Positions 6,135-61,584 of a stretch of 61,584 bases of DNA are shown here, piece by piece (position 1 is the stretch's first letter; each line of letters opens with the position of its first letter). Source of the stretch: a virus. Lineage: Duplodnaviria > Caudoviricetes. The stretch covers positions 1 through 61,584 of IMG/VR virus record IMGVR_UViG_3300025120_013662. One strand, written 5' to 3'. The notes beneath the pieces are model-generated. The model saw only the letters and a list, made by a program, of their open reading frames with translations, was not told the DNA's origin and did not search any database. Made by a program: the position numbers and the translations under genes.

Positions 6135-6154
6135 TAAAAACAGGAGATTCATAA

Positions 6155-7669: not shown

Positions 7670-7670
7670 A

Positions 7671-8288: not shown

Positions 8289-8299
8289 AGGTATAAAAA

Positions 8300-11952: not shown

Positions 11953-11954
11953 TA

Positions 11955-16424: not shown

Positions 16425-16439
16425 CCAAACGGAGTAAAC

Positions 16440-41400: not shown

Positions 41401-43708
41401 CGACTGGTACAATACAACAGTCGTAGTTGACGTAGATGGTTCTGATTCAGCCCACCAACATACTTATGGTGAAGATATCAGGAAATTCTTCTGGTCTGAA
41501 AGAGTAGCCTTTGAGGATCTTCTAAATCCAAAAAAAGTTTTAGAAGATACCGCATATGGCGGGATAGCATCCTCAGATGTAAACTATAATTTACATAGGG
41601 ATTGTACAGGAAGTATTTCTGGAACTATTAATGATGGGCTTTATAAGAAGGCTATATCAAATTTCTTAGCATCTGTGCCCGAGTTTTTCCTAAAGAAGAA
41701 ATCTAATCGATTTGGGAGTGAAGGATACCTTACCAAGTTTGTCTCACGTCTTGGAGCGGGAGCTAATGAAAATAACGTATCTGGAATAGAAAAAAGAACT
41801 GTTACCGTAAATACAAATACTGCGTATGTGATGGAGATAGGGTTACTAAAAACAGAACAGTTCAATCTATACAGTAATCCTTATGCTTTTGGCGTACCAA
41901 CGGCAACAGGGTCTAATGGCTGGGACCATGGTCTTCCGCTGGCAGACCGACCTGTTGGCACAAGTTGGCCCTTGCACCGTGGTGAGTTTGCGCCATTCAC
42001 TCCTCCATATTATTACGGACCAAGTACTGTAACAATTACGTATATGCCAACAACTGCGGATTTAGGCGGACAAACAGTGGGAGAAGTTTCACTGGATGAT
42101 ATCATTGGCGAAGCAGCACAAAGAACATATGTTACATTTGGCAACGAAAGCGGAAGTCTATACGATTTCTCGTCCGGATCCTTTGTAGACGTTTCGGGGA
42201 CTACTGTTTCGACGTCCAAGCAGCCATTCTATGGCTGGAATCGGGCATGGCAAAACAGGATGGACATTGATGCTTCAATAACTATTGATAATAGACATCC
42301 AATAGAAAACTCATATTATTCTCCTAGGGATCCGAACAAGTGGGTGATTATGCCAAAGTGGGAATGCCCAGTATTAGATTTTCCAAAAACTCAAACATTC
42401 ACTAATGGAATTAGAAGCACAGACTATGATTTCTCTTCCTCTATTGGTAGCAGTAAAACAGAGTTTAGTAACGGTCCACGAGAAAATCTTGATGTCAGTA
42501 CTTCTGGAATGTGGCACCAATATGGAACTTTGCCTGATGCAAATCAGGGAATTTATATATACATAAAAGACATTACACCCACTGAAACTGAAACAAAATT
42601 AGTGGGGTTCTCGACCGCTGGCGGTTATGCCACAGTTAAGAAGCTACCTAAATTTGTGATTGATTCAGAGCGTGCAATTTCTTCTTTGGCAACGCTGACA
42701 GGGTTTGATCCAGACGAGGTCATGACCGACGGATTTGAAATCTCTAAAGCAAAACGTGTTGGACAACTTGCCTCTAATCAAGAAAAAAGTATTTCCGAAG
42801 CAGTAATAGCAATGCCATACTATGAAGATCCAGAAACAAATGCTCCAACTGCTATAACGCTCAGAGCAAACCTCACCCGCCTAGGTCCAAAAGTTAAAGA
42901 ATTCCGTAGAGCTTTCACTAAATATTCTTTGCCGCCAGCTTTGTCTAGAAAATTGGTTCCTATGATTCCTAAAAAATATCCTTTAATATCACAGGATATA
43001 AATCCATTTAGTGAAGATGATTATGAAAAAGCTCTTACTTCTGGTGATGATACAACGGTTCCTGTGATATATTTGTTTGAGCATAGTATAAATTTATCAA
43101 CACAAGATTTAGCAGATATATGGCAAGGCATCTTGCCTGACATTGGACACTCTCTAAAAACAAGTGTAACTTCAATAGACCATTATATGCCGAGGTCATC
43201 AGCAAGGAATAGAAGAAGGAATACAGAAAATAAATTTCCTGAAATCTTATCAAAGCAGATAGAGCTTGATCTTCCTGATGGACAAAGAACCGGGATACCA
43301 AGGCCTGATTTGTTAGATATATCTCCCTCCTTTGAAAAAGATGGATTTCATCCAGAGATTAAGTGGCTAGTGTTCAAGGTGAAGCAAAAAGGTATTGGTA
43401 GTTATAAAGAATTTATGCAAAAAGAAATCGAGGGCTATGCTGGAGATACTTATGAAAAAGTATTTGGACGAGTATCAAGAGAAGGTATGACTCCGGCAGA
43501 AGAGCAAGCACAAAATCAAATTGAGGATGCTTGGGCTGCACAAACGTATAAAAATACTTTTGGAATAACTGACGAAAATGGTGGACCAACATATAACTGG
43601 CCATATGATTATTTCTCTCTAATAGAGAGCGCAAAAATTACATCAAAGGTTGGATTTAGACCAGACCTTGATCAAGAATTTAGAGATTATGAAGATGGTG
43701 AGGAGTAA
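32441..43708 (+). CDS. Giant tail/baseplate protein (3755 aa) with LamG/ConA-like domains and four inserted repeat modules
   Basis: NFVKYGSAEKYY; LamG-like TVEFFLR...DGQWRNYSF...FYVNGQ...GSIDEFRFW...LYYKFNEG; YKSKGT..AIR..IRCYG (baseplate-I-like). Confidence 0.7.
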   Translation: MTKSKLFQNSKQATTVGKYLKSTSAGNVGEGIESSAHLSESIKRIQTFLPDTNYSDPENFVKYGSAEKYYRDSFDYITNYYPYDGSALEKVKFYNDLNPLEKYIFEEKYPTATGFISIGSDYGTPVSHSSGYFAPQDSTYNQYLQAKGGPYSGTIYSTSDYRVNNLGFCGPSGSTVEFFLRKNNTGDGYPAGSVSGKEVVVDIWNGVTSSAPSFGRMTILCKSGSQDRFYVTLQSGTHGAGVAGVQELPVPTTGGLNIADGQWRNYSFAFANSGSNTMLDFYVNGQCVGPQININSLIGEVTGALVANIGSLRGDVYGPNNKNRGALEGYGKLTGSIDEFRFWKKSRSGEEIGRHWFTGVHGGADKHLANVDLGLYYKFNEGITLTSSIDQIALDYSGRVSNGSIIGYDAQVRNTGSSINELSLSSIREVEDPIVRSSNIKVLEDKNILVTSGSNYDYTNNSRIINSIPSWIVEEDENNGGELSSLSQIVSSYFDTLFGQITALRRIKDKQYVSGSISGSINEFPHNERLIQGMGLEAPEIFENIGALELYSQRDEQINFDQPISNIKNSIYKNLYNNLNEIYKSKGTAEAIRNYIRCYGVGEDIISLNAYGNNVEYFLQSNYKAGTTPKKYADFSGRRRRSDVTASIYQYYDSNVQGSHGIIAGTHASASAFTIEYEALFPDNSVIDNLEHDPVEVVTASLFGFHTPRGAFSASVSEVDDLTWHSMGGPIKDDGLQVYAIKSPAEFAEVSNPAHKVRDVYFAVKNRAGTTLLTSDIYRNVYSDQKWNLALSVRNELYPFAQEVSGTTIGSAAAKKNHKFILELYGSNYDGGTKRESFKTTTTLQWPSGSAEITSSKRLYMGAHRTNYTGTVLENSDVHGTSLRYWTDYLPTGTVDLHARDADSYGRLNPYRQAYSFQTPNRPAAYIPEISTLALNWDFANVTGSDASGRFLVSDFSSGSFAPEIAATALITITGAGDLVDGQKFTIRDTAGRDHTFAIEDANDNTANNLIGVDTAQGDDDDGAAAVQFAAAINAGTCATTITAVRAGATVILTQDVVGARGNRSNDDAAAGVTVGDFTGGKDSYESSYQGILSDINLRQHTGRGDFFAPNDTPIRKQYVYTEKLQLPEYVTDDDMIRILDKDVDTFTLESRPMNYFFALEKSVYQSVSKRMLQMFASIDEFNNLIGEPVNKYRGRYKSLEKLRELFFRNVSSDRVDLQKYVAFYKWIDSSMGRMIEEMFPASARVADNVRTVIESHALERSKISYKYPGSSKRYFPILSGTAKSNGGSVCIDTPGWKFNHAPVNRKQSTNAYWWKYRAPRNSIPTPETNVSWITDGRQTVFNALRREVSGSQLVCVSSDILMGNKEYFNKVNNITDFTFGEFKPLPDIVDAIEPNTKKEFPFFASLIKSTDGDAGTFSGKMIAPFRAISSSIETGIFGNIGGTIKNVDFVNLHNDEVYNKDIGTPMQGPYTNEHVGGIQARHNRPLRLNNITTKRKESFNLLVAPATGAFTTIEVTDDGSFSIDDYHGKTITLSAGGVDYSATVSKTTAAASTSKTVIGISGSSNKGLVAQSLMGSLLASINADGLPVTVEFTDSGATASKIKVTSLALDNSMDAIAFAGTWPSTDALMEPNPPTFTFLANGTADVFRNLAGSLKTSAVGFEDISHGQYFRGGGVKSPVNISNIASITGSTGIDVSSGAGVKTLGNFSNKYEVVHGFGREFANMDFVFNNSSYYSSGIPSAFLTTPSMRTVSTQTGSADYDAPRQRSARITNKTIIATRFAAPGSKLDSKQQFRDVASDQMSPNNALPFRNLGVRKPYLGALNSHTRWGGFSGSSPFVLDTFRADDSHGFFGRQEPLKELNDGLDLFGFAACSITFSNAQFANGNTLTLNVAGHTYSAAVNTSVNPGSSTVTVIGLNGVSSGGGGANDAAIATALATSLSQWVSQLVGGAQRPFVPILASNVVRVLRKDMGGSEDGKVFEGALTGKTGVSVAGFAAVDPTTLAASAYQKASAMPHHKTQRNAVERIRLGLAPSFPPQFPPESSRLISGSTFDTGLITRPIPQADRSSWFQSLSGSDYNNYQSYVISSSRYPSSITIPSASLTTPGAHALGAIIVVGNTSSDWDGKTIDIEDALSKATRFTADDSVAYGAFSRTAGNPVVYTYGVDADGGVENKAFVAGSLLLAMEAANAANDMAITVSIDQSGANPIIGLRQTYRGTAGNNTIEGTAFEGGGSLAGASGFANGSNDVPILAELGQAPFSGTTFQNPRSGGDPVYVGRYLTSFFSASYSVLTGSGGQREFPWSRQIGFVPWQQLRAGNTNLGRYYRQNNLYEISPARYAPTFLANGQEQMNTTPQTQLGVPFRAHYDRLNNDPANFPATAGIYYKDQRAVKKRVLKSFIEPPVTSKYKPLLHQISTFRGIADANIATSDKKSDVSLLYSYGNTLMGFANKDLNIEIGSQKNKNHLLGSIRRPYEILRDNYIENVMSGTDGVNIIKMFVYSETIYPKDRYGYLSGTRSRRAFKNRFWRDDISFDENLKTSGIGGTTAVNSAGLFSTIAISRFNRQMKRMEVGVLPTPNSSSQGAVYMSSQQIWGETTGSSALEALYGSASIWPMDSYLYSDAVAANEFTSTGSYPVGIVGNLAAGELMTPWHGRPIQDTASDAAYKLYAESQFIGAQYIYTVPWIDGSPSNTRSFLGYAPGAAITRPPWTAGRERRFVDGPTKGQLNEGRAPFYDTYETWADDVRAQGQGHTIIPEFRISEHVEAYSTGSADQEVRRVLELTGASLGVSTGEQSTFIDRYSQTDKLEFLDTFIKNGSKDLSFNKYPKHLELKTDAIVKLLPYDGFYPVLRTVQIATMFSQSYTKTKPHYQTGENDVWVVGYSGASGSIFKPDSFRPLLRPFFAPGILYNSIKSGLAVDYPIRRGGLGTRGDDGQFHRISNYLTNTNSAGFQALQGPLSGALWTSGTADSSRYVGQIPGNTRRRSNGQFDWYNTTVVVDVDGSDSAHQHTYGEDIRKFFWSERVAFEDLLNPKKVLEDTAYGGIASSDVNYNLHRDCTGSISGTINDGLYKKAISNFLASVPEFFLKKKSNRFGSEGYLTKFVSRLGAGANENNVSGIEKRTVTVNTNTAYVMEIGLLKTEQFNLYSNPYAFGVPTATGSNGWDHGLPLADRPVGTSWPLHRGEFAPFTPPYYYGPSTVTITYMPTTADLGGQTVGEVSLDDIIGEAAQRTYVTFGNESGSLYDFSSGSFVDVSGTTVSTSKQPFYGWNRAWQNRMDIDASITIDNRHPIENSYYSPRDPNKWVIMPKWECPVLDFPKTQTFTNGIRSTDYDFSSSIGSSKTEFSNGPRENLDVSTSGMWHQYGTLPDANQGIYIYIKDITPTETETKLVGFSTAGGYATVKKLPKFVIDSERAISSLATLTGFDPDEVMTDGFEISKAKRVGQLASNQEKSISEAVIAMPYYEDPETNAPTAITLRANLTRLGPKVKEFRRAFTKYSLPPALSRKLVPMIPKKYPLISQDINPFSEDDYEKALTSGDDTTVPVIYLFEHSINLSTQDLADIWQGILPDIGHSLKTSVTSIDHYMPRSSARNRRRNTENKFPEILSKQIELDLPDGQRTGIPRPDLLDISPSFEKDGFHPEIKWLVFKVKQKGIGSYKEFMQKEIEGYAGDTYEKVFGRVSREGMTPAEEQAQNQIEDAWAAQTYKNTFGITDENGGPTYNWPYDYFSLIESAKITSKVGFRPDLDQEFRDYEDGEE

Positions 43709-44608: not shown

Positions 44609-47600
44609 ATGCCAAATAGAAGCTCATGTCGAATTGAAAATATTATGCCAAGTGTTACGATTGATTCGGTAACCCTTGAGAATACTATAGAAGACGATAA
44701 TGAGGTCGTATCCATCATTGTGGAGGCAAAAACTCAAGAAAAGATATCTGGTAGAGAAGCTCAGAGATGGTATTCAGATATAGATTTTTCCAGATTTGTC
44801 AGAGTAAGAATTGTTGCTTGTCTGGACGCTACGCAGGCACCTTCATTGGACTATTTACAGCAAAGATTCAATGAATACATTGATTTGTCCGAGGCTGGGA
44901 TTGCTGATCTTAACGCACAAGATTTTGTAAAATCTCAATACAATAAAATGGGTCCAATAAATGGAGACGATTTTAGCCGACTAGCTAGATCTCCCGAGGG
45001 TCCTATTGTACAAATACCCTTGAATCAAGATTTAATAGCCGAAGCTGCCAGTGATCAAGATGGAAATCTAGTACCAGAAGATGGAATTTTAAGACCATAC
45101 TATGTTCAGTCTCCACAAGAAAGGTTTTCAAATAGCCGAACTTTGGCACTACCTCAGGAAAATAATTTATCCGGAATAATTCTTTTTGATGATTCTCTTA
45201 AGGATTTGTTATTACTTGATGCTGAGGGCGAAGTGCCGGCAAGAGAAGTGCAGCAGATTGCAAGAAACATTGTCAATCAAGAAGAGACTTTTCTATATGA
45301 TGAGGTACCCTTACAAACAATAAAACTTTCAGTTGGCCCCGGCACTATTTATCCGGATGGTCAATTATCTCATTTAAGTTTATATGCTTTTTCATATATT
45401 GATTACGGACTTTTCGTAGAACAGGTAGGAGTAGAAGAAGAAAATGAGAACATGCAGTTTAGGTATATTCTAAACTCTTTAAATTCTGGTATGGGAAAGG
45501 TTAATAACTCAACCGTCATCGGAAAGCAGACCTCATATGATCCTATAGAAATTAGAACAACAGAATCAACAGAAGGATTAGTTGAATATGTTTCAACCAA
45601 TCAATCTATTGGTAACATTTCTGACCGCATTGGCGAGACGACAACCTTACAATTAAATTCCCCACAACAGAATCTGTTGTTTGACCTCAGAAGAACAAAT
45701 TTTCCAAAATTTGATAGATTTAAAACAAAATTTTATGATTCTTTTTACGGTTCTTTGGATAATTCCTTGTTGGGAAAAAGTAACTTAAAGATAATACATA
45801 ACGATAATTTCTTCTCTGACTTTTGGTTCTCAAAAGATGATGATGATAATATTCGGTATACTTACGCATTTAATATTTTATCATTCTTAGCACAAAATAG
45901 TAAATTCCCAAGATTATATACAAATAGAGAAACTTCTGAAGAGTTACTCGGCGGCGGTGACATTATTCAATTTAATGAAGTTGTTGACGAGCGAGCTAGG
46001 GTTTTAAATATAGAAGCAAAAAAGCGTCTAGTAGATTTTAATGCTTTTACAAATGATAACGATCTTGGCACAGTTGTCCGTCAAAAGAGAAAAACCTTAG
46101 AAGCTCACTTAACAGAAAAAATTATACAATCTCCTAAAATTCTTCCGAATATAAGACTTCCGGGACAAGGGCAAGACCCAATATCAGCTTTCCGAGGTAG
46201 CGGGATAACTTTTTATGAGGGGTATGATTCTCTAGAGAGTGAACATCTTTTGCAAAATGTATCCAAATACCAGTATGGGTTTAAGTGTTATGTATCAGAC
46301 CCAGCCCAGCTTTATATAGAAAGAAGCTTGCAAAGACTAATTGGAGCAGAAGGTTTAGTAAATGAATACTACAATACTGTTATAAATTCTTTGAATCTTT
46401 ATGACCCAGCCACAGGAAAAATAACAAAAGACCCTAGCGAAATAACTATTGATAATATTCCAGCCAATGATTTATTAGCGGAGCAAGTTCGAATCTTTGT
46501 TTCTTACTTGAGAAAATATAGAGTACCAATTAAAAAATCAGAGTTTAAGGGAACAGAGATAGGAAATGTTTCTATACGTGACTATCGTTCTGTTGAGTCC
46601 GTTCTTTTATCTTTAGTAAATTCTCCCTTTCCCGGTGCAGTTAAGCAAGTAGCAGATACTATTGGTATGCTGGTATCTGATTTGGCTTCAATAGTCGGAA
46701 CCCTTAATCCAAAAGGTGCAACATACGAAGCATCTGGTGAAAAATTTACCTTAGAAAATTCGACTACTCCTGTCGCTATTCGAGAGGCAGAAAATTATTT
46801 TGATGAGACAGTAGAAGCCGGTGTCACAAAAGGACTTGGATACGACTATTTTGGTGATTTCAAAAGAGACCTATTAACAACAGAGATAGAGCAAAACCAA
46901 GGGCAAGATATTCGAGGTAGAATTCTTAGAGAAGTTGGAGAACCAGTAGGTCCAACTAGAATACCTGTCGAAATATATCGCACAAGGGTCGGTCGTGAAT
47001 TTAATAAGTATTTTTGCCGAGCTATAGAAGCTGCCCAGCCAGAAGATAATGGTCCTATAGTGTATGAGCAGATGGAATATCAAGATCCTGCTTATAGGTA
47101 TTTATCTCCTGTGTTTATCCGCCGCCCCGGAAAAGAAAGAATAGATCAGTTAAGCTATTTCCCTATAACAAACGATGTAAATGCTCCTTACAATTTTGAT
47201 GAATATGCAGATTTTTTTGCAGATATTATAAAATCAAAACGTTCTATGAAGTATGCAGAAAAACCTTATTACGAGTTAGTGACTGACAATACAATTGATT
47301 CTCTACAAATAAAAACAGCTAATTCTCTCATAGAAACATTAAGTATAGATCACGGCTGTACAGTGTTGGAACAAATAGATCAACAATTTACAGTGCCCAG
47401 CCCTACAACTATTTCACCGGCTACGACAGTTACGTTTAGTACACAAGAGCTTTTACCGAGTATCTTAGGTGGCAATAATCTTGGAATCGCTGCTTCTGAG
47501 TTTAGTGCGCAGTCAATACAAGATGCTTTGGACGAGCAACGTTTGTCTGACGAGTCACAAAACCCTGCAAGACTATCAGAAGCTCTTGGTCCTGCTACAA

Positions 47601-49303
47601 AGTTATTATTTACTTTAGTCGGAGAGCTTGAGATTCAGCCAACTCCAGATAGTATTTCTTATTATGAAGAAAATTTTAATTCATCAACTCGCATGAAACA
47701 AATTTTCGAAGCCGACCACCGGAATGTCAAGCAGCTAATTGAGACACCTCAACTTGGCTTTATCCCGAACCAACTCAAGTCTATGTTAGTTTGGTCCACA
47801 TCTATTCCAGAACAGGCACTTGGGGAGGTCGGTCCAAAATTTGATGCAAGAAGAGTTCTCTTGCGACAGCAAGATATGCTTGTACCTTCAGATGGTTCAC
47901 CTTTTGACCCATCAATTTACTCTACATATTATGACCCTGCTGGTGATAATCCTCATTTCTTGATGACAAGAGACCCAATGAAGATATACTCTAAATTCTT
48001 AGCTTTTTGGATGAATTATAAACAATTAGGTATTGTTGAATATTTGTCACATTTTGATAGTGTGTCCCCAACATTCAGGATTGATGGTGATGATGATTTA
48101 GTTAGAGGCAGCAAGCTGGGCCGACCAGTTTGGATGAAGATGACGGCAGACATTGCCGATCAGTTATCAAGTGGTCAACTCGGCATTGGAAATGTTCTTT
48201 GTCGCATTCGAACGGCGTCTAACGAAGATGTTCTTGCCGATGGGTCATTGACTGATAGAGTTAATGAGGAAACAAGAAACCGGGGCGAAGGACAGGGCGA
48301 ACGTGATAATAACCAAGCATTTGACCCATTCCCAGTTGATGAGCTACCTGCAATTGATTTTGATTTTCAAGCCTTCAGAACTCCCCTTATTTTAAGACCT
48401 AGAGATATTCCCAGTCTCGCCCCGCCAGTTAATTTTCAACCTCCGGGATTTCCAAGGCCCTCAATTCTTAGTCCTGTTGCTCCAGTACAGCTAAACCAAC
48501 CCGGATTAGCTACTCCCAACTTAGTATCACCTAGGTTGGCTACTCCTAACTTAGTATCACCTAGGTTGGCTACTCCTAACTTAGTATCACCTTTATTAGC
48601 CACTCCTAGTCTTGCATCTCCAGTAACAAGAACGCAAAATACTCGCCAACGGACAGCACAGGCTCAACGACAGTCACCACAGGTTCAACAAAATAATGGG
48701 CAAGGTTCACAATTTTCAGTGGCTTTACCTAGAAGACAGCAATTTAGTTTTGCCGGCGGTGGCGCAAGAAACGTATCAGTATCCCGAGGAGTCTCACCCC
48801 GAGGTAGACTTTATCAAGCGGCTCCTAATTCAAGAAACACGAGAGAACAAGACAGAGAAGTAGACCAAGAGCAGGTAGATCAGGATATACAAAATTATGG
48901 ACTGCACGGTGCTGATCAATCAGAAAACTCTCAAACAATTTCAGATGATTTGGTTAGAAGTTTAGTTGAGAACAACTTTGAGTTTTTATCTAGAAAAGAA
49001 ATATTCAATTTACCTATATACCATGAATATTTTTATATGAGTTTTGGGTATTCTATACCGGACCCGGACAGAAGAACTGAATTACTCGGAGAAAGAGAGA
49101 TACCTCAGATGCGAATACCGGCAGAAGAGGTCAGATTAGAGGCCCCAGATGGTCTTCCAAATGTTTCTCGACAGGAAGCTGACAGAGTGCAACGAGAGGC
49201 ACAAGCTCAAGCTGGCTCTCCACCTGAGAGAAGGGTTCGACAAGATGCACAAGCACAGGGCTCTAGACGTAATATTAATACACGAGGCATCGGCAGATTA
49301 TGA
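44609..49303 (+). CDS. Large hypothetical structural protein (1564 aa) with Pro/Gln/Arg-rich low-complexity C-terminal region
   Basis: Long ORF with GAGG RBS. Contains the LATPNLVSPR tandem repeat. Confidence 0.6.
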   Translation: MPNRSSCRIENIMPSVTIDSVTLENTIEDDNEVVSIIVEAKTQEKISGREAQRWYSDIDFSRFVRVRIVACLDATQAPSLDYLQQRFNEYIDLSEAGIADLNAQDFVKSQYNKMGPINGDDFSRLARSPEGPIVQIPLNQDLIAEAASDQDGNLVPEDGILRPYYVQSPQERFSNSRTLALPQENNLSGIILFDDSLKDLLLLDAEGEVPAREVQQIARNIVNQEETFLYDEVPLQTIKLSVGPGTIYPDGQLSHLSLYAFSYIDYGLFVEQVGVEEENENMQFRYILNSLNSGMGKVNNSTVIGKQTSYDPIEIRTTESTEGLVEYVSTNQSIGNISDRIGETTTLQLNSPQQNLLFDLRRTNFPKFDRFKTKFYDSFYGSLDNSLLGKSNLKIIHNDNFFSDFWFSKDDDDNIRYTYAFNILSFLAQNSKFPRLYTNRETSEELLGGGDIIQFNEVVDERARVLNIEAKKRLVDFNAFTNDNDLGTVVRQKRKTLEAHLTEKIIQSPKILPNIRLPGQGQDPISAFRGSGITFYEGYDSLESEHLLQNVSKYQYGFKCYVSDPAQLYIERSLQRLIGAEGLVNEYYNTVINSLNLYDPATGKITKDPSEITIDNIPANDLLAEQVRIFVSYLRKYRVPIKKSEFKGTEIGNVSIRDYRSVESVLLSLVNSPFPGAVKQVADTIGMLVSDLASIVGTLNPKGATYEASGEKFTLENSTTPVAIREAENYFDETVEAGVTKGLGYDYFGDFKRDLLTTEIEQNQGQDIRGRILREVGEPVGPTRIPVEIYRTRVGREFNKYFCRAIEAAQPEDNGPIVYEQMEYQDPAYRYLSPVFIRRPGKERIDQLSYFPITNDVNAPYNFDEYADFFADIIKSKRSMKYAEKPYYELVTDNTIDSLQIKTANSLIETLSIDHGCTVLEQIDQQFTVPSPTTISPATTVTFSTQELLPSILGGNNLGIAASEFSAQSIQDALDEQRLSDESQNPARLSEALGPATKLLFTLVGELEIQPTPDSISYYEENFNSSTRMKQIFEADHRNVKQLIETPQLGFIPNQLKSMLVWSTSIPEQALGEVGPKFDARRVLLRQQDMLVPSDGSPFDPSIYSTYYDPAGDNPHFLMTRDPMKIYSKFLAFWMNYKQLGIVEYLSHFDSVSPTFRIDGDDDLVRGSKLGRPVWMKMTADIADQLSSGQLGIGNVLCRIRTASNEDVLADGSLTDRVNEETRNRGEGQGERDNNQAFDPFPVDELPAIDFDFQAFRTPLILRPRDIPSLAPPVNFQPPGFPRPSILSPVAPVQLNQPGLATPNLVSPRLATPNLVSPRLATPNLVSPLLATPSLASPVTRTQNTRQRTAQAQRQSPQVQQNNGQGSQFSVALPRRQQFSFAGGGARNVSVSRGVSPRGRLYQAAPNSRNTREQDREVDQEQVDQDIQNYGLHGADQSENSQTISDDLVRSLVENNFEFLSRKEIFNLPIYHEYFYMSFGYSIPDPDRRTELLGEREIPQMRIPAEEVRLEAPDGLPNVSRQEADRVQREAQAQAGSPPERRVRQDAQAQGSRRNINTRGIGRL
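48506..48623 (+). repeat. 30-bp in-frame tandem repeat (3 near-perfect copies plus 1 degenerate copy)
   Basis: Unit TTRGCTACTCCYAACTTAGTATCACCTAGG encodes LATPNLVSPR. Confidence 0.92.
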
Positions 49304-54319: not shown

Positions 54320-55486
54320 ATGCCTTACCTCCGGCGCTTTGGCGTAAACGACATATTTAAGAACACCGTTGAGACGCAACCTCAGTATGATGTTACTATG
54401 TACTCTAACAAGGTCTTTATAAACAAAAGGCGTTTTGAAGGACAGAATGTTCCAACTGGAACAATCAGCCTATACGAAATTAATGCGGATCGAGCCACAG
54501 ATTTAATTCATGCGTTTGCAATAAAGGATGGAAATTTTCAATCCTTTGGCCCAATCTCCACAAACGACTATGCTACAGCTTCCTACGGGACAAAAATTTC
54601 ATTAGACTATCCTCTGACTTCAAGTATAGCTCGACAATACATCAGGAGCGAACCCGCTCCCTCTACGACAGATGGTTCAACTGATTCATATTTTACTGTA
54701 AGAAGAAGAATGCTGGCCCTGCAAAGTACTCTTGATTATTATAGACCCTTGAGTCCTTCGTATTCATACCAGAAACATTTTGAAACAGTACCAGTAAATT
54801 TAATAAGCATACCTTCCATTATGTTTGATTCAGGGATACAAAAAGGGTCAGTTAATCTTAAGTTTTTCTTTACTGGAACTTTAGTTGATGAAGCTGTTGA
54901 CAAAAACGAAAACGGCGAACTTATATCTACAACTGGAGCGCTAAGTGGAACCACAGTAGGGGTTGTATTGTACAATGAGGGTTTTGTTTTACTGACTTCT
55001 TCTTTGGTTCTATCAAATGATCTCGATGACTATCTTGGAACAGGAACCAAAGTAAAACCACAATGGACTTATTTCGGCTCATACTATGCTACGGGATCAG
55101 GCGGAGCCGGAGCCACAGGTAGCTCTTATACATTATCCTTTAAGGGCACAAATGAAATCCCAACAACTACTATGTTTGCAGAGGCTACTGCTGGGTCTTT
55201 AAACAATTCTCAGAACCTGACTTGGATAAGTTCATCAAATTCTAATTGGAGAGGTAGAACAAACTCCGATTCTAGTTCTTATGTTGAGCCAAAAGATATT
55301 GTAATAAAAAACACTCTTCAAAGCCAATATTGCAGATATGATGATGAATTTGAAAAACAAGTTTTTATAAGTTCTATTGGGATTTTTGATGAGCAGAAGA
55401 ATTTAATTGGTGTAGCAAAACTAGCGAACCCAGTTAGAAAAAAAGAAACTGACGCTTATACGTTTAAACTTAAATTAGATTTCTGA
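54320..55486 (+). CDS. Putative tail/baseplate structural protein, paralog of 53149
   Basis: GVVLYNEG.V.LTSS (compare GLIFYQAGIAVLTSS), NNSQN.T, FISSIGIFD...LIGVAKLANPVRKK...KLKLDF. Confidence 0.65.
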   Translation: MPYLRRFGVNDIFKNTVETQPQYDVTMYSNKVFINKRRFEGQNVPTGTISLYEINADRATDLIHAFAIKDGNFQSFGPISTNDYATASYGTKISLDYPLTSSIARQYIRSEPAPSTTDGSTDSYFTVRRRMLALQSTLDYYRPLSPSYSYQKHFETVPVNLISIPSIMFDSGIQKGSVNLKFFFTGTLVDEAVDKNENGELISTTGALSGTTVGVVLYNEGFVLLTSSLVLSNDLDDYLGTGTKVKPQWTYFGSYYATGSGGAGATGSSYTLSFKGTNEIPTTTMFAEATAGSLNNSQNLTWISSSNSNWRGRTNSDSSSYVEPKDIVIKNTLQSQYCRYDDEFEKQVFISSIGIFDEQKNLIGVAKLANPVRKKETDAYTFKLKLDF

Positions 55487-55492
55487 TATACT
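55484..55492 (+). promoter_or_regulatory. Possible extended -10 element (TGaTATACT) 6 bp before the RuvC-like ATG, implying a leaderless transcript
   Basis: TG-N-TATACT at 55484-55492. No Shine-Dalgarno before ATG 55499 and no convincing -35. Confidence 0.35.
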
Positions 55493-55498
55493 ACTTGT

Positions 55499-56077
55499 AT
55501 GATATTAGGACTTGATATTTCTACCACCATGGTTGGGGTAGCGATTATTGACAAAGAGACTAGGAAACTTATCCACTGTACTGGGTGGGATATCTCCAAG
55601 ATTACTTCAACATATGAAAAATCAGAATTTATAGGTGCAGAGTTATATTCTCTTCGTTCTGAATTTAATATTGAAAACTTATTTATAGAAACTGCTTTAA
55701 AGAAATTTATGCCGGGACGGTCCAGAGCGGACACTATTATAAAATTAGCTAAGTTTAATGGTATTGTTTCGTGGTTGTGTTATGAGTGTTTTAACTTTGA
55801 GCCAACCCATATTAACGTCAATAGTGCTCGGTCCTTATATGGGCTGTCTTTTCCTAGGGGAACAAAAGGACCCCAAAGAAAAAAGATGGTAATTGAAGCT
55901 GTAATAGATAAAGAGAAGACAGATTTCTCATATGAGATGGCTCGTGGCGGAAGAAATTTTAAAAAAGGCACCGATGATCGTGCTGATGCTGTTGTTATTG
56001 CTCGGGCTGGAGAGTTTATATTGAGGAACCAGAACAACAAAGGCTTCTTGACAGAAAAAATAGTTTTAGTTGATTAA
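55499..56077 (+). CDS. RuvC-like Holliday junction resolvase (RNase H fold)
   Basis: ILGLDISTT.VG, FIE, LAKFNGIV, K..VI, DDRADAVVIA. Confidence 0.82.
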   Translation: MILGLDISTTMVGVAIIDKETRKLIHCTGWDISKITSTYEKSEFIGAELYSLRSEFNIENLFIETALKKFMPGRSRADTIIKLAKFNGIVSWLCYECFNFEPTHINVNSARSLYGLSFPRGTKGPQRKKMVIEAVIDKEKTDFSYEMARGGRNFKKGTDDRADAVVIARAGEFILRNQNNKGFLTEKIVLVD

Positions 56078-56081
56078 CAAA

Positions 56082-56090
56082 CTACTTATT
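56082..56090 (+). promoter_or_regulatory. Candidate phage late promoter element CTACTTATT
   Basis: Ends 2 bp before ATG 56093 of a leader-bearing gene that has no Shine-Dalgarno. Confidence 0.45.
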
Positions 56091-56092
56091 GC

Positions 56093-56533
56093 ATGAAATT
56101 AAGTAAAGATATAATTCGCAATCTTATCAAAGAAGAGATTAGTGAAATGTGCGCTGCGGACCAATACAAGATGGGATCAGACGACAAGCATCAAGATTAT
56201 CATCATCAGGATGATGAAGGTGATATGGCGAAGCGCCAAATGTTCAAGACAGCCGAATATGCTACTGCTATTTTTGATATGATCCAAGACGGTGAACAGT
56301 ATCCAGCTTGGATTCAAAGCAAGATGACGAAGGTAGCAGATTATATCGGAGCAGTCAAGCACTATCTTGAGTATGATCATGTTATGGGAGAAAAGCTTGA
56401 CAAAGACGCCGATGCTGGTGATTATATTAAAGACTTCCGAAAATCTGATGCCCCACAATTCAAGGGCAAGTCAAAAAAGAAAAAGCAACAGATGGCAGTA
56501 GCTGCCTATCTTGATGCGAAAGATAACAAGTAA
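56093..56533 (+). CDS. Hypothetical protein with type-A leader (MKLSKDIIRNLIKEE); two small helical modules
   Basis: Leader, then EGDMAKRQ...PAWIQSKMT..ADYI...YLEY, then DAGDYIKDFRKSDAPQFKGKSKKKKQQMAVAAYL. Confidence 0.75.
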   Translation: MKLSKDIIRNLIKEEISEMCAADQYKMGSDDKHQDYHHQDDEGDMAKRQMFKTAEYATAIFDMIQDGEQYPAWIQSKMTKVADYIGAVKHYLEYDHVMGEKLDKDADAGDYIKDFRKSDAPQFKGKSKKKKQQMAVAAYLDAKDNK

Positions 56534-56540
56534 AAATTAC

Positions 56541-56568
56541 TTGACCTAATCAAAACATATGGTATTAT
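56541..56568 (+). promoter_or_regulatory. Sigma70-like (early) promoter
   Basis: TTGACC (56541-46), 16-bp spacer, TG-G-TATTAT (56560-68), AT-rich upstream. GGAGGT at 56579-84 precedes ATG 56591. Confidence 0.65.
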
Positions 56569-56590
56569 AGTGTTGAAGGGAGGTGCTCCT

Positions 56591-57196
56591 ATGAGTTACC
56601 AAGTCTTTAGCGATATGGATGGTGTCCTCGTCAATTTCGAGGGTGGCGTTCTAAAATTTATGAACCAACGTTTTCAGGAACTAAAAGATCAACCAGATCA
56701 TCCTGATCACAAACTTGCCCGTTCGGCTGCCAAAGAACTCGGCGGCTGGGACGTCGAGATTAACAAGTGGCACATTGCTCGATCTGATCAAGAAAAAAGC
56801 TTAGCCCGCAACTATCGGGTCCGAGACTTTATGTATCGTCTCGTAGAAGATGATGTAAATCTGTGGGCAAACCTTGAGTGGGAGCGTGGCGGCAAAGAGC
56901 TTTGGAATTATATTAAAGATATTCCCGGTTTGGAGATCTTGTCAGCACCGATGGCCGAAGGTTCCAAGATCGGCAAGCGGATGTGGGTTGAGCGAGAACT
57001 GGGTGTCCCAGTTGAAAAAGTCAATCTAGCTGACAGCAAGAAGTCCTATGGAGTTCACAACGGAAAACAAGGACTTTTGATTGACGACCGTGACAAATAT
57101 GTCAACGAGTTCCGTGACGGCGGCGGCATCGCTATTAAACATAATCCAGATGACGTGGATAATACGATTAGACAACTTAAAGAACTAGGGTTTTGA
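56591..57196 (+). CDS. 5'(3')-deoxyribonucleotidase (NT5C)-like HAD hydrolase
   Basis: FSDMDGVLVNF, ILSAP, GKRMWV, LLIDDR..V.EF...GG.AI.H. Strong Shine-Dalgarno supports ATG 56591. Confidence 0.85.
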   Translation: MSYQVFSDMDGVLVNFEGGVLKFMNQRFQELKDQPDHPDHKLARSAAKELGGWDVEINKWHIARSDQEKSLARNYRVRDFMYRLVEDDVNLWANLEWERGGKELWNYIKDIPGLEILSAPMAEGSKIGKRMWVERELGVPVEKVNLADSKKSYGVHNGKQGLLIDDRDKYVNEFRDGGGIAIKHNPDDVDNTIRQLKELGF

Positions 57197-57360
57197 TAGA
57201 GGACAAATTTGAAATCGGTGAACTTGTTTGGTTTACTTTCGACGGTGCTGTACCACGCTTAGGCGTGGTCAGTGCTATCACGAATTATTATCAGGTTCTA
57301 TTTGGTGACGAAAAATATTGGATTCCTCCTCATCACATCTCTAGGCACGACGGACTGTAA
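57193..57360 (+). CDS. Small 55-aa protein, Tudor/PWWP/SH3-like pattern (absent from the ORF track)
   Basis: TTG overlaps the upstream TGA (TTGA) and TAA abuts the primase start. Translation: MIEDKFEIGELVWFTFDGAVPRLGVVSAITNYYQVLFGDEKYWIPPHHISRHDGL. Confidence 0.65.
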   Translation: MIEDKFEIGELVWFTFDGAVPRLGVVSAITNYYQVLFGDEKYWIPPHHISRHDGL

Positions 57361-58308
57361 TTGCTTAACGACCCCAACTCGGCGAAGAAGAAAAGAATCC
57401 TTGATGAAATCCTTGGCACACCTCAGCGCCAAGGCAAGGAATATCTTTACTCTTCCCGGTGTTGCGGACACCACAAGCGCAAACTCTCAGTAAACTTTGA
57501 TAAGAACGTCGGTAAGTGTTGGGCTTGTGACTGGCGCACCAAAAATTTACGACGCATTGTAAGGCGCTGGGGTGATATAAGTCACATCCATAGATGGAAG
57601 GATTTTGACGCCGATATAGAGCTAGGCGACCTAGACAACCTCTTTGCGAAGGAAGAGGAAATAAAACAGCGAATTGACCTTCCAAATGAGTTTCAAACGC
57701 TTACGGGTCGCTCTCACCCACCATCTGCAAGAGTTCCCCTAAACTATCTCCGCAAACGTGCCGTTGTAGAGAAAGACGTCCTCTTTTGGAAGATTGGCTA
57801 CTGCGCTTCTGGGGAATACAAAAATAGAATTATTCTTCCATCATTTGACGACGAAGGTTATTGCAACTTTTTTACGTCCCGCACATATGACCCTAACATC
57901 TGGCCTCCGTATATGAACGGACCCGGCAACAAAGACATTATCTTCAACGAACTTCTGATTGATTGGGAGCGAGAGGTCACTTTGGTTGAGGGTGTCTTCG
58001 ACGCCATCGTTGCTGGCGAGAACAGCATCCCGCTCCTCGGCTCAACCCTCAGAGAAGACAGTAGACTTTTCAGGAAGATCGTAAAGAACGACACACCGGT
58101 CCTACTTGGTTTGGACAACGATGCACACAAAAAAGCTATGAAACTTGTGAAAGCGTTGCTGGCTTATGACGTAGAAGTTCGGCTTATGGACACGTCTGGT
58201 TATAAAGATGTTGGCGTGATGCCTCCTGATATATTCGAGGAACGCAAAGAGAAAGCGCCTTTTATTGATTCCGATGCCTATTTATTCAAGATTGCTTTAA
58301 TGGCATGA
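57361..58308 (+). CDS. DNA primase (Zn-binding plus TOPRIM domains)
   Basis: CCGHH...KLSVNF...CWAC, YLRKR, IGYC..GEYKNRIILP, LVEGVFDAI, PLLGS, LGLDNDA, KDVG. Confidence 0.88.
   Translation: MLNDPNSAKKKRILDEILGTPQRQGKEYLYSSRCCGHHKRKLSVNFDKNVGKCWACDWRTKNLRRIVRRWGDISHIHRWKDFDADIELGDLDNLFAKEEEIKQRIDLPNEFQTLTGRSHPPSARVPLNYLRKRAVVEKDVLFWKIGYCASGEYKNRIILPSFDDEGYCNFFTSRTYDPNIWPPYMNGPGNKDIIFNELLIDWEREVTLVEGVFDAIVAGENSIPLLGSTLREDSRLFRKIVKNDTPVLLGLDNDAHKKAMKLVKALLAYDVEVRLMDTSGYKDVGVMPPDIFEERKEKAPFIDSDAYLFKIALMA
58278..58286 (+). promoter_or_regulatory. Candidate phage late promoter element CTATTTATT
   Basis: At the 3' end of the primase gene, 31 bp before the first gene (58318) of the leader-protein array. 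Confidence 0.45.
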
Positions 58309-58317
58309 GGGCACAAA

Positions 58318-58845
58318 ATGAAAGTAACAATTTCTCAACTTCGGGGTATGGTAGAAGAAGCCTTACTTGACGAGAAGAAGAAAAAGAAGAAGAAGAAAAA
58401 AAAGAAGAAGAAAGGCGGCAAGAAAGACGCCTGCTATCATAAAGTGAAATCACGTTATGACGTATGGCCTTCTGCTTACGCTTCCGGTGCTCTTGTAAAA
58501 TGCCGCAAGGTCGGCGCTGCTAACTGGGGCAACAGCAAAAAAGAAGGCGTTGAGGATGACTACCTCCGCCAACTTGTGGAAGAAGAAATCTCAAAACTTA
58601 AAGAAGCCGACAGCGAAGGACTACGCAAATGGTTCGGTCGCAAGGGTGAAAAAGGAAGTAAGAGTGGCTGGGTAGATTGTAACACCTGTCGTAAAGATAA
58701 AAAGACGGGTAAAAAGAAATGCAGTGCCTGCGGTCGTGAAAGCGGCGAATCACGTTCAAAATATCCGAAGTGCCGACCTACACCCTCAGCGTGTAGCAAG
58801 AGCGGTAACTACGGCAAAAAATCTAAGGCAGGTAAAAAAGGATGA
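58318..58845 (+). CDS. Lys/Cys-rich protein with type-A leader, 13-Lys tract and an internal leader copy
   Basis: MKVTISQLRGMVEE; K13; DACYHKVKSRY.VWPSAYASGALVKCRK; internal YLRQLVEEEISKLKE; LRKWF..WVDC..C..C..CGR..KYPKCRP. Confidence 0.78.
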   Translation: MKVTISQLRGMVEEALLDEKKKKKKKKKKKKKGGKKDACYHKVKSRYDVWPSAYASGALVKCRKVGAANWGNSKKEGVEDDYLRQLVEEEISKLKEADSEGLRKWFGRKGEKGSKSGWVDCNTCRKDKKTGKKKCSACGRESGESRSKYPKCRPTPSACSKSGNYGKKSKAGKKG

Positions 58846-59243
58846 GAATCACGAAATCACAACTACGACAGATTATTAAAGAAGAGGTCTCAAGCGTCCT
58901 CAACGAAGAAGAAGAATATTATCACATTGAAGACGCAACCTATGAAGACGGCACGCTTGCCGAAGACGTAGAGTTTTGGGATGATGTCATAGAAGAGGCA
59001 GAGTACCAAGGACGCAAGGTCACTCTCAATAAGCCCATGCAAGGTGATGTAAAAAAATCTAAAGTTTATGTTAAGAACAAAAAGGGAAATGTAGTCAAAG
59101 TAAACTTTGGTGATCCCAACATGAAGATCAAAAAATCAAACCCTGAAGCTCGTAGCAACTTCCGTGCCCGTCATAACTGTGCGGACAAGATGAAAAAAGG
59201 AGATAAGACAACCGCAGGGTATTGGTCTTGTAAAGCATGGTAA
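58842..59243 (+). CDS. Basic Cys/His protein with type-A leader and acidic spacer
   Basis: MRITKSQLRQIIKEE; acidic segment; AEYQGRKVTLNKP...VNFGDPNMKIKK..P..R.NFRARHNC...YWSC. Confidence 0.78.
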   Translation: MRITKSQLRQIIKEEVSSVLNEEEEYYHIEDATYEDGTLAEDVEFWDDVIEEAEYQGRKVTLNKPMQGDVKKSKVYVKNKKGNVVKVNFGDPNMKIKKSNPEARSNFRARHNCADKMKKGDKTTAGYWSCKAW

Positions 59244-59707
59244 TGAAAAAATTAATGACAGAGTGGAGAAATTTTCTCCAAGAAGAAATGAAAGTTGTTA
59301 TTGGAGCAGTCAAGGATTATGTTTGTCCCCCTGCAACCCAAGATTTAAAACTCAACACTAAAAACCGTGATGCTGCTATTCACGCAGAGCATATCAAATA
59401 TGGTCCTTTGAACGTTGACGAGCCCGGTGATTACTGGGAAAATATAGCAAAGTATTGGAATACAACTGAGGATGCTGCTAAAAAATCACTATGTTCTAAC
59501 TGTACTGCTTTTGATATTTCCCCTCGAATGAAAGAGTGTATGCCCGGTGTAACCTCTGATGAAGACGGAGAACTTGGCTATTGTTGGATGCACCACTTCA
59601 AATGCCATTCAGCCCGTGCTTGTTACACTTGGGCCAAAGGTGGACCAATTGATGAAGATAGTGTATCTCACGAATGGCAATCCAAGAGCCCATTTTCGGA
59701 AGACTAA
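59243..59707 (+). CDS. Cys-rich protein with type-B leader (MKKLMTEWRNFLQEE)
   Basis: ATG 59243 overlaps the upstream TAA (TAATG). CPPATQD...CSNCTAF...GYCWMHHFKCHSARACYTW. Confidence 0.78.
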   Translation: MKKLMTEWRNFLQEEMKVVIGAVKDYVCPPATQDLKLNTKNRDAAIHAEHIKYGPLNVDEPGDYWENIAKYWNTTEDAAKKSLCSNCTAFDISPRMKECMPGVTSDEDGELGYCWMHHFKCHSARACYTWAKGGPIDEDSVSHEWQSKSPFSED

Positions 59708-59708
59708 T

Positions 59709-60308
59709 ATGAAAAAGCTAATGACCGAGTGGCGGAACTTTCAAAAAGTTCACAAAGTAAACGAGAAGATTTATAAACAATATGCCTCACGTCTCAGTGA
59801 AGACTCACAGGAGGTTTTCTGGAATTTGTCGGAAGACCAAAAAGTATTTGTTGTTGAAGACTGGATAAGCCAAGGACGCCCAGCCCAGCATCTTACAGAA
59901 GAGAAAATTGCTGACCTTGATGCCGAACAAGCATATAGCACAAAAGTTCGTGGCGTCAATGTTATTATCAATTTAAAAGATACTGACCTTGAGGGAACTC
60001 GGCACAGCAAGGAACGCCAGTTCCGTCACGACGAAAAGATTTCTAATAACGCCATCATCCAAGCAGTTGAAATGGCCATCGGCAAAATCATTCAAGATTA
60101 TGCCAACGGCGAACTTGGAAACGATGAACCCTTTCATATTCGTATGGTGGGCAAAGGCAAGGCTCCAGCCCTCAATGTTATAGCCGTTTTAGATATGCGA
60201 AAAGGTCCGGACACCATAAAAGTAATTACTGTTATGCGTAAGGACGATTTCAAAACAGATACATTTGGCGGCGGTGAACAAAAAACCTACACCGTACAAA
60301 CCCGATGA
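59709..60308 (+). CDS. Hypothetical protein with type-B leader; C-terminal domain possibly a BECR-fold RNase
   Basis: Start placed at 59709 (MKKLMTEWRNF). TRHSKERQFRH...IS...I..AV...VITVMRK. Confidence 0.72.
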   Translation: MKKLMTEWRNFQKVHKVNEKIYKQYASRLSEDSQEVFWNLSEDQKVFVVEDWISQGRPAQHLTEEKIADLDAEQAYSTKVRGVNVIINLKDTDLEGTRHSKERQFRHDEKISNNAIIQAVEMAIGKIIQDYANGELGNDEPFHIRMVGKGKAPALNVIAVLDMRKGPDTIKVITVMRKDDFKTDTFGGGEQKTYTVQTR

Positions 60309-61093
60309 AAAAAATAATGGAAAACTGGAGACACTTTAAATCTTCAGAAGAGCCAAGAATAAACAAAGGGGTTGTAAGCTTTTATAAATCACCCCTCCCA
60401 GTCGAGTATATTACAGAAGTTTTGGGAGTTCAAGTACCTCTTAACGAATCTTATACAGAATATTCTCAGACTCTTGTAGAGGAGATAATACAAGAGCAGA
60501 TTTTATTTGAGGGTTTTTTTGACTCTATCAAAGATAAAGCAAAAGAATATGGTCAAGGTCTTATGGATCTATTCACAACTTTAAGAAAAATTGTTGGCAA
60601 TAATTATCTTATTACGAAATTTGTTAGACAATTGAAAATGTATGTTGACAACATAAAACAGAACTTTAGCAACTTCATCCAAAAAGCTTTAGACGAAGTT
60701 CCAAGCTTAGGAACAATGATGACAAAGATAAAAAACGCAATACAAAAAGCATTCTCGATTGTCAATAATGCACGAGGCTGGAAGGGTGCCTTGGCATTGT
60801 CAGGTCTAATAGTAATCTTTACTTATATTCAAGATAAGTTTGGCGATGTTATAAAAAATCTAACAAATGTTGAAGAGAACGCTAAACTTTTATATCAATT
60901 TGTAATTGAAAAATTCAATTTAGAATCTGTTTCTAAAAAAATACTGGGCACGATGACTGATATAAAATCTTATCTTGGTATTCTGGGTCCCATAGTAGGT
61001 GGAGTTAAATTTGTCGCTGATGCTTTGGGATCGATTACTAGACCGTTTGTTGAAAAATATGTAGAAGAAGAGCCCATCGATCTTAACACTTAG
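60305..61093 (+). CDS. Helical protein with type-B leader and two hydrophobic segments
   Basis: MKKIMENWRHF; GWKGALALSGLIVIFTYI; YLGILGPIVGGVKFVADALG. Confidence 0.72.
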   Translation: MKKIMENWRHFKSSEEPRINKGVVSFYKSPLPVEYITEVLGVQVPLNESYTEYSQTLVEEIIQEQILFEGFFDSIKDKAKEYGQGLMDLFTTLRKIVGNNYLITKFVRQLKMYVDNIKQNFSNFIQKALDEVPSLGTMMTKIKNAIQKAFSIVNNARGWKGALALSGLIVIFTYIQDKFGDVIKNLTNVEENAKLLYQFVIEKFNLESVSKKILGTMTDIKSYLGILGPIVGGVKFVADALGSITRPFVEKYVEEEPIDLNT

Positions 61094-61105
61094 GAGAAGA
61101 ATAAA

Positions 61106-61399
61106 ATGAAAATTACAAAAGAATATTTGAGAGGTTTGATAAACGAAGAGGTAGAAACTCAACAGCAGCAGGCTAATAAACCCAAACCCGCCGCTCAACA
61201 AGCGGATGTTGAAAAAGTAAAAACTCGACTTGGTGCCGTATCTGGTCTTGAAGATCTATTGGATAAAGTAAATAGCCGAGTAGAGTTTGAGGAATTCCTC
61301 AGAGAGGTTATTAAGCTTGGAACTAAAAATGTTAAATCTCAAGATATTTTGACATCACTCAGGAATGTTTTTGCTGCTCTAAGTAAAGAACTTAAATGA
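61106..61399 (+). CDS. Small helical protein with type-A leader
   Basis: AGGAG RBS; MKITKEYLRGLINEE. Confidence 0.75.
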   Translation: MKITKEYLRGLINEEVETQQQQANKPKPAAQQADVEKVKTRLGAVSGLEDLLDKVNSRVEFEEFLREVIKLGTKNVKSQDILTSLRNVFAALSKELK

Positions 61400-61584
61400 A
61401 AAAGTTGATGACCGAGTGGCGCAACTTTCTCCACGAGGGGAAATACGAAGCAGCCACAACAGAATTGACCCGCAAGGTAATACCTCACGTCAAATATATT
61501 ATTGACGAGGTTATTCCTAGCGATAATGTCCAGAACTCACGCAAGGACTTGATTCTCGTAATCGGCAAGAAATATGAAACAGGT
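61396..61584 (+). CDS. Protein with type-B leader, 3'-truncated by the window edge (absent from the ORF track)
   Basis: ATGA overlap at 61396. Reads MKKLMTEWRNFLHEGKYEAATTELTRKVIPHVKYII... and stays open to the window end. Confidence 0.75.
   Translation, partial: MKKLMTEWRNFLHEGKYEAATTELTRKVIPHVKYIIDEVIPSDNVQNSRKDLILVIGKKYETG

Follow-up and report, generated by a model that had tools for sequence, protein, structure and literature searches.

Introduction

The internal proteins Ip1-3 of phage T4 have been described as sharing only an N-terminal packaging leader (PMC12373910, PMC3012670) and as inhibiting GmrSD enzymes (PMC12373910). For one of them, IPIII, the first 10 residues were reported to suffice for packaging, where targeting depends on residues 4 and 7 and processing on residues 8 and 10, and the prohead protease gp21 was described to cut after L/I-X-E (PMC9026906). 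T4 propeptides are given as 10–20 residues long (PMC9026906, PMC5694885); 65 residues are removed from gp23, and gp21 removes nine of its own residues (PMC9958956). In the giant phages phiKZ, 201phi2-1 and SPN3US, diverged gp21 homologues are reported to cut propeptides at A/S/G-x-E, most of these propeptides being longer than 100 residues (PMC5694885). ART, GNAT and ParB-like domains have been described as typical of phage proteins that are predicted to be injected (PMC5512222). Here we describe an N-terminal leader that heads a tandem array of genes in the final 5.5 kilobases (kb), at the contig end, of the IMG/VR virus record IMGVR_UViG_3300025120_013662 (Duplodnaviria; Caudoviricetes). The window analysed is the entire 61,584-base record for this genome. 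The leader is a 14-residue module (consensus MKKLLTEWRKFLKE) with the 11-residue core MKKLMTEWRNF; it is kept by selection on the peptide, is portable between otherwise unrelated proteins (cargos), and may act as a capsid-targeting propeptide.

Results

Leader copies in the window differ by silent changes

The core MKKLMTEWRNF heads the genes that start at 59243, 59709 and 61396 on the + strand. It is encoded as ATG AAA AAA TTA ATG ACA GAG TGG AGA AAT TTT at 59243, as ATG AAA AAG CTA ATG ACC GAG TGG CGG AAC TTT at 59709 and as ATG AAA AAG TTG ATG ACC GAG TGG CGC AAC TTT at 61396, exactly as read in an earlier note on this DNA, which had called all differences silent. The pairwise differences amounted to 6, 6 and 3 of 33 bases, and no residue was changed. 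In simulations with random substitutions in the 33 leader bases, the peptide stayed intact in 1 of 300,000 trials with six substitutions and in 788 of 300,000 with three; the silent-only pattern of the three copies is far beyond chance. According to the Nei-Gojobori method, the proportion of synonymous differences (pS) was 0.62–1.29, meaning that synonymous sites were saturated, while the proportion of non-synonymous differences (pN) was 0–0.035, the sole “non-synonymous” step being a path-averaging artefact of AGA/CGC, both of which encode Arg.

The start codons of the array abut or overlap the preceding stop codons (TAATG, TAATATG, ATGA, ATGA), so that the leader ATGs are the true gene starts of a tightly packed operon. 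Beyond the three copies already noted, the array contains a diverged copy of the same class (type B) at 60305, MKKIMENWRHF, and four leaders of a second class (type A) at 56093, 58318, 58842 and 61106. As DNA, the four type-B copies amount to a repeat family of 33 bases with an identity of just 79–82%. Type A (MK[IL][TS]K..LR..I.EE; MKITKSQLRKIIKEE) and type B align without gaps and have in common M1, K2, a hydrophobic residue at position 8, R9, hydrophobic residues at 11–12, K13 and E14.

The leader heads unrelated cargos and is selected as a peptide

Degenerate back-translation of the exact leader retrieved 7 viral contigs, and a looser pattern retrieved 86 stretches. By regular expression, open reading frames (ORFs) with the leader were found in 53 of 88 sources, the 35 without them being mostly chance matches to the pattern. 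A metagenome scan for MKxLLTEWRKF added at least 119 stretches. Altogether at least 528 leader ORFs were collected from viral and metagenome contigs (219 sources), at least 427 of type B and at least 101 of type A; at least 426 of them were unique (338 type B, 88 type A). The census covered ORFs of at least 45 residues. As it counted ATG starts only, leaders are undercounted; the orthologue of the 59709 gene in the relative G001, for example, starts with GTG.

The cargos behind these leaders fell into at least 134 unrelated clusters, with 72 singletons, among the matches listed. Pfam families recognised in 74 cargo representatives were ART-PolyVal (3), GNAT (3), SAM lyase (2), DUF3293, DUF3990, AAT, tRNA_lig_CPD, LRV and ParB_N; among these, ART-PolyVal, GNAT, DUF3293/SAM lyase, AAT, tRNA_lig_CPD and LRV are mutually unrelated. 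Matches above the curated cut-off were obtained for L048:2849 (ART-PolyVal), L001:5723 (GNAT), L053:2432 (DUF3293), L063:8755 (AAT), L059:1894 (tRNA_lig_CPD) and L032:11023 (LRV). The representatives were mostly 47–376 residues long, three being longer (456, 480 and 541 residues), and carried at most one recognisable domain each. The earlier statement that the window copies do not stem from a very recent duplication was right and even understated: as the cargos are unrelated, the leader genes are not gene duplicates at all.

We compared 5,789 leader pairs whose cargos are unrelated (109 unique DNAs). In codons 1–14 pS was 0.71 and pN 0.19, the latter biased low because the collecting patterns fix M1, K2, L4, E7, W8, R9 and F11; positions 12–14 were fixed by no pattern. 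In codons 15–20 of the same pairs pS was 0.76 and pN 0.68, and the sequences looked random. The invariant Arg9 was encoded by all six of its codons (CGG 37, CGA 32, AGA 21, CGT 12, CGC 5, AGG 2), and no Rfam family was matched in positions 55000–61584 of the window. Replacement changes thus remained rarer than silent ones in the wider sample, and the claim that selection acts on the peptide and not on a DNA or RNA element is supported, with pS near saturation, pN low and Arg9 free to use any codon.

The consensus leader had no match in bacterial and archaeal genomes of 185,579 species, so the search gave no host clue and no prophage copy. Neither did a tblastn search of named phages with a 25-residue leader stretch give a match, a query too short to be informative. 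A homologue search with residues 1–40 of one leader protein found 10 orthologues of that single cargo only. Literature searches of main texts for capsid targeting in a marine, T4-like or metagenome context, for Mel-JY01 and for five leader strings found no description of the leader, and the passages covered of the Far-T4 paper (PMC4360716) do not mention it.

Relatives place the leader in a T4-like lineage

The relative G001 (190.5 kb, 100% complete according to CheckV) is collinear with the window and carries at least 7 type-B and 10 type-A copies of the leader. Its ends (1161-4958 and 189676-190528) encode near-identical proteins (MVKQQIEERCQKGY... and MVRIAHFGDTHIKNLKYHYEYR...), so that the two ends of the contig overlap, with the leader array running across the junction. 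G001 encodes TerL, a gp20-type portal, a Peptidase S77 (gp21-type) protease and a gp23-like capsid protein. The nearest cultured portals were those of Microcystis phage Mel-JY01 (45%), Flavobacterium phage immuto (37%) and Rhodothermus phage RM378 (31%). The lineage is an uncultured marine branch of the T4 superfamily (far-T4-like myoviruses).

A gene for a homologue of ribosomal protein S21 lies within the head module, between those for the prohead protease and for the capsid protein, both in G001 (L089 17197-17478) and in Mel-JY01 (L100 10563-10790). Three tandem genes of Mel-JY01 (PP395634; 60276, 60923 and 62056), which begin MIKLKSLLQEII...DRVWH[LV]T, were considered as bearers of a portable leader and ruled out: they are full-length paralogues and therefore not the same phenomenon. 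Their MIKLKSLLQEII start resembles type A and is followed by an ART-like motif.

The leader as a candidate capsid-targeting propeptide

We lean, with modest confidence, towards the leader being a capsid-targeting propeptide that is cut by a T4 gp21-type prohead protease. The leader helix would dock its protein to the prohead's scaffolding core, and the gp21-type (Peptidase S77) protease would then cut after Glu14 at [L/I/V/M]-x-E. The freed cargo would stay in the head, enter the host together with the DNA, and might act there at an early stage, for instance as an effector of counter-defence or host takeover. Type-A leaders have the same layout and probably the same role.

The predicted cleavage site, [LIVMF]12-x-E14, was present in 294 of the 338 unique type-B leaders, compared to 2.2% per position inside the cargos. 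It sits exactly where conservation of the leader ends, the information content being 3.5 bits at E14 and at most 1.3 bits from position 15 on. If an [LIVM]-x-E ending anywhere within residues 12–22 was counted, 336 of the 338 leaders contained one. In the window the predicted site is found in the 59243 and 61396 genes. The leader forms an amphipathic helix with a hydrophobic moment of 0.53–0.60, a value attained by 1–4% of shuffles. A Sec/Tat or lipoprotein signal was ruled out; the mean Eisenberg hydrophobicity of the 14 residues was -0.20 to -0.33, charges were spread throughout, and a hydrophobic core of about 10–15 residues was absent. When proteins were scanned without bias for similarity limited to their N-termini, IPII/IPIII were recovered in T4, and a group of 10 type-A and one of 6 type-B proteins in G001. 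From the same scan, a 54-residue ORF on the minus strand of T4 (NC_000866, start 19130) was noticed outside the three annotated ip genes; it begins MKTFKEFIKE, a CTS-like start (CTS, capsid targeting sequence) that ends in I-K-E.

A protease of the kind that such a propeptide would require is encoded in relatives. PF03420 (Peptidase_S77) was matched in 6 of 13 leader-bearing records (E-values 1e-28 to 4e-33), including all four that are at least 90% complete. In the capsid proteins of G001, G004, G005 and G007, LL[RK]E aligns with FLTE65 of T4 gp23, and L7-Q8-E9 of the relatives' protease aligns column for column with L7-I8-E9 of T4 gp21; the specificity of the relatives' protease is probably conserved. 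Furthermore, a conserved small protein encoded right after the protease begins with the type-A-like MKKSELKNIIKEC in 4 of 5 genomes examined, and in G005 a type-A gene lies directly upstream of the protease.

Part of this evidence would equally suit a helix that docks its cargo elsewhere, be it at the cell membrane, a host machine (ribosome, RNA polymerase), a compartment for phage replication or assembly, or a shared chaperone, L-x-E being merely a part of the amphipathic pattern. We regard this as an unlikely but serious alternative. The strongly amphipathic helix, selection at the protein level and portability fit any docking function; some cargos, such as GNAT and the Fe-S-like protein described below, could work in the cytoplasm without injection, and the canonical site is missing from two of the window's four type-B copies. 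Docking outside the capsid leaves unexplained, however, that conservation halts exactly at a Glu preceded by [LIVM]-x, that the same motif occurs in the capsid protein and the protease at the positions cut in T4, that a head-module protein has a leader-like start, and that an S77 protease is encoded in every near-complete leader-bearing genome (4/4).

Far less probable, in our view, is a shared start that has no function as a peptide, either as a remnant of common descent in fast-diverging paralogues or as a constraint on translation initiation or messenger RNA at the 5' ends of genes. The leader genes do lie in tandem, and identical codons were shared at a frequency of 0.557 compared to 0.426 expected from codon usage, with the excess at codons 2, 4–6 and 11: codon 2 was AAA in 101 of 109 copies, and codons 4–6 shared CTA/CTA/ACA above the expectation. 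This leaves some role for shared ancestry, gene conversion or a constraint on the start region. Neither descent nor initiation accounts for cargos that belong to different Pfam families and at least 134 clusters, for the homologues of the 59243 cargo in other phages, which align only from residue 15 onwards, or for one cargo that bears either leader type behind identical flanks (see below). An invariant Arg9 spread over six codons, pS near saturation and the lack of an Rfam match likewise speak against this explanation.

Several observations weigh against the capsid-targeting propeptide, or reduce the strength of the case for it. Collecting leaders by pattern and regular expression inflates the apparent conservation at positions 1, 2, 4, 5, 7, 8, 9 and 11, and the excess codon sharing at codons 2, 4–6 and 11 leaves room for constraint at the nucleotide level. 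The canonical site is absent from 59709 and 60305, two of the four type-B genes of the window. The window, being a fragment, lacks a head module, so its protease is deduced from relatives, and just 13.3 of its 61.6 kb align to G001, with a mean identity of 72.7%. No PF03420 match was obtained in 7 of the 13 leader-bearing records, all of them 23–81% complete. Two of the three ART-PolyVal matches, the ParB_N match and the SAM lyase match on L053 lie below the curated Pfam cut-offs. The leader patterns had no match in Mel-JY01, immuto, a cyanomyovirus or T4, and hence no cultured phage with the leader was found. T4 IPII/IPIII begin MKTYQEFIAE and IPI begins MKTFKEF...ITE; the leader has the M-K start and the [IL]-x-E end in common with this CTS, with no further similarity detectable. 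A complex prediction of the S77 protease with the first 36 residues of leader proteins gave a score of 0.01, which speaks neither for nor against binding.

Recombination at the leaders

That the repeats could act as recombination points for swapping cargo, as had been suggested from the window alone, is supported by two events seen in relatives, a leader swap and a cassette indel, with breakpoints inside or at the leaders. The cargo of the 58842 gene, headed by a type-A leader in the window, is headed by a type-B leader in L004 (1353-1727, minus strand), and 113 of 119 residues (95%) are identical from residue 15 onwards. Homology between the window and L004 covers the 21 bases upstream and resumes at CTC AAC GAA GAA; with homologous flanks on both sides, only the leader was replaced. 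The same cargo carries type B in L004, L156 and L207, and type A in L003.

The cassette (60332..61414, + strand) is present in the window and absent from L004. It comprises the cargo of gene 60305, all of gene 61106 and the 5' part of the 61396 leader. By blastn, window positions 55355-60331 align with L004 5192-264 and window positions 61415-61584 with L004 271-102. As the two L004 end-points lie 8 bases apart within one leader, the window carries about 1.09 kb extra, and both breakpoints fall inside leader codons; the 60305 and 61396 leaders are 1,091 bases apart, start to start. The orthologue of 61396 in L004, L001, L003, L005 and L055 starts with MKLIME[QN]WRGF, in which the 5' codons (I-M-E) resemble the 60305 leader while the sequence from codon 12 onwards matches 61396. 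Such chimeric leaders are the pattern expected of crossovers between leaders. At the level of domains, the C-terminal domain of the 59709 cargo was found in L055 directly behind a canonical leader. Recombination inside or at the leader thus leads to the gain, loss and re-heading of gene cassettes.

The positions of the breakpoints might suggest that selection mainly keeps a DNA site for cassette exchange, comparable to integron attC, with the peptide as a by-product, but this is the least probable explanation and very improbable indeed, since the copies are 79–82% identical over 33 bases with longest shared runs of about 8 bases, synonymous positions are free to vary, contrary to what would be expected of a DNA site, and no recombinase was found in the array with Pfam or PHROG.

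Genes of the array and of the window

All genes of the array are on the + strand. The first gene with a type-B leader (MKKLMTEWRNFLQE, leader 59243-59284) spans 59243..59707 and encodes 154 residues with a Cys-rich cargo, which is similar to proteins of other phages that carry the annotation “high potential iron-sulfur protein”. A tblastn search matched 7 phage records (best 42% identity, E-value 2e-25), and every alignment began at query residue 15 or later. Its seven orthologues are 77–94% identical and share invariant Cys28, 84, 87, 99, 114, 121 and 127. No Pfam family was matched by the product, and an AlphaFold2 model computed with the 7 orthologues was unusable (mean predicted local distance difference test, pLDDT, 39.7).

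The second gene, with the leader MKKLMTEWRNF (59709..60308), encodes 199 residues with a cargo of an unrecognised family, without a Pfam or PHROG match. In place of the usual [LIVM]-x-E at residues 12–14 it reads FQKV, with VNE at 17–19. Its G001 orthologue (184907-185506, L098) uses a GTG start that overlaps the upstream TGA, and its leader, (M)KKLMTEWRKF, is intact. The third gene, with the diverged type-B leader MKKIMENWRHF (60305..61093), encodes a helical protein of 262 residues with hydrophobic segments that weakly resembles tape-measure proteins (PHROG tape-measure families, E-values 4e-5 to 7e-3); after the leader core it reads FKSSEE, without a canonical site. It is followed by a gene with a type-A leader (MKITKEYLRGLINEE; 61106..61399, 97 residues) and by a fifth gene with the type-B leader MKKLMTEWRNFLHE (61396..61584), which runs off the contig end. 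Full-length orthologues of the latter, with the different leader described above, have 273–276 residues. Searching the ESM Atlas with the 59709 protein and a full-length 61396 orthologue returned clusters of viral hypothetical proteins; the lone named lead, LPD23 (0.86), was weak and below the reliable range.

Upstream of these genes lie three more with leaders of type A or a type-A-like leader. The gene at 58842..59243 (MRITKSQLRQIIKEE) encodes 133 residues and matched PHROG 7595 (E-value 8e-12), the gene at 58318..58845, with a type-A-like leader (MKVTISQLRGMVEE), encodes 175 residues and matched PHROG 727 (E-value 3e-23), and the gene at 56093..56533 (MKLSKDIIRNLIKEE) encodes 146 residues and has an orthologue in L004. 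The 58318 cargo is very basic (isoelectric point 10.0); it contains 13 consecutive Lys and a Cys-rich domain that it shares with cyanomyoviruses. In cyanomyoviruses this domain (PHROG 727) is found inside a 665-residue protein just upstream of the large terminase.

Nearly all long ORFs of the window are on the + strand. The window encodes gp25-like and gp6-like baseplate wedge proteins (PHROG 261 and 219), a RuvC-like resolvase and a primase, and is a fragment of a myovirus. Three giant ORFs in the tail/baseplate region (23306-28747, 32441-43708 and 44609-49303, encoding 1,813, 3,755 and 1,564 residues) matched no PHROG family. A long run of + strand ORFs extends over 879-19392; as read from the ORF list alone, their N-termini look like those of sugar-nucleotide enzymes and glycosyltransferases, several with Rossmann-type GxGxxG starts, for example at 5208, 11955, 14527 and 15453. 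This run would be a large glycan-biosynthesis block inside the phage. In 55000-61584, sigma-70-like promoters (16, with 13.7 expected) and terminators (7, with 5.3 expected) occurred at chance level. The same was true for the T4 late-promoter motif TATAAATA (7, with 6.1 expected).

Discussion

The leader described here is a concrete case of a protein-level signal that doubles as a breakpoint for the exchange of cassettes. If it is a capsid-delivery signal, more than 100 families of phage “dark matter” proteins become candidates for injection with the DNA. Injected proteins act first against host defences, and ART-like, acetyltransferase and SAM-lyase-like cargos are already visible among those headed by the leader. 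The principle of the T-even internal proteins would then also apply far away within the T4 superfamily, in an uncultured marine branch with a different tag and a far larger cargo repertoire. The tag could also be tried as a tool to load foreign proteins into such capsids.

A bolder version is attractive, though we would put it somewhat short of an even chance. The leader might serve a globally distributed lineage of the T4 superfamily, marine and uncultured, as its universal and portable tag for delivery to the capsid, with every bearer (at least 134 families, most of no known function) an injected early effector. The two classes A and B would sort cargo by place or amount in the head, and the tag would also provide a homology handle for exchanging effector cassettes between phages. 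Were this true, the whole injected arsenal of such phages could be read from metagenomes by a simple sequence tag.

Among described systems, the polyvalent proteins and T4 Alt, a packaged and injected ADP-ribosyltransferase, resemble the present one in their cargo: ART-PolyVal, DUF3990, GNAT and, weakly, ParB_N are domain types described for proteins whose packaging and injection is predicted or known (PMC5512222). According to that description, however, 2–15 domains are joined there in one giant polypeptide, while here the proteins are separate and small, each with its own leader. The giant phages, as described in PMC5694885, offer another parallel, as their N-terminal propeptides are removed after the Glu of a three-residue motif and identical N-termini can occur among paralogous head proteins; there, the propeptides belong to conserved head or ejection proteins and not to an open-ended set of cargos.

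The closest likeness is to the T-even CTS of IPI-IPIII. In both systems a short N-terminal leader with an M-K start, aromatic and hydrophobic positions and an [I/L]-x-E end is found on otherwise unrelated small proteins; the genes lie in variable loci, a gp21-type S77 protease is encoded in the genome (here, in relatives), and the cargos are plausibly counter-defence proteins. The leader here is longer, with 14 residues compared to 10 in T4, and comes in two classes. Its arrays are much larger, with at least 7 type-B and 10 type-A copies in G001 compared to three internal proteins in T4, and its cargo repertoire of at least 134 clusters, which includes enzymes, is far wider. The likeness seems to lie in how the leader works and not in demonstrable homology. 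As far as sequence can show, the leader would represent a new family with the mode of action of the T-even capsid targeting sequence.

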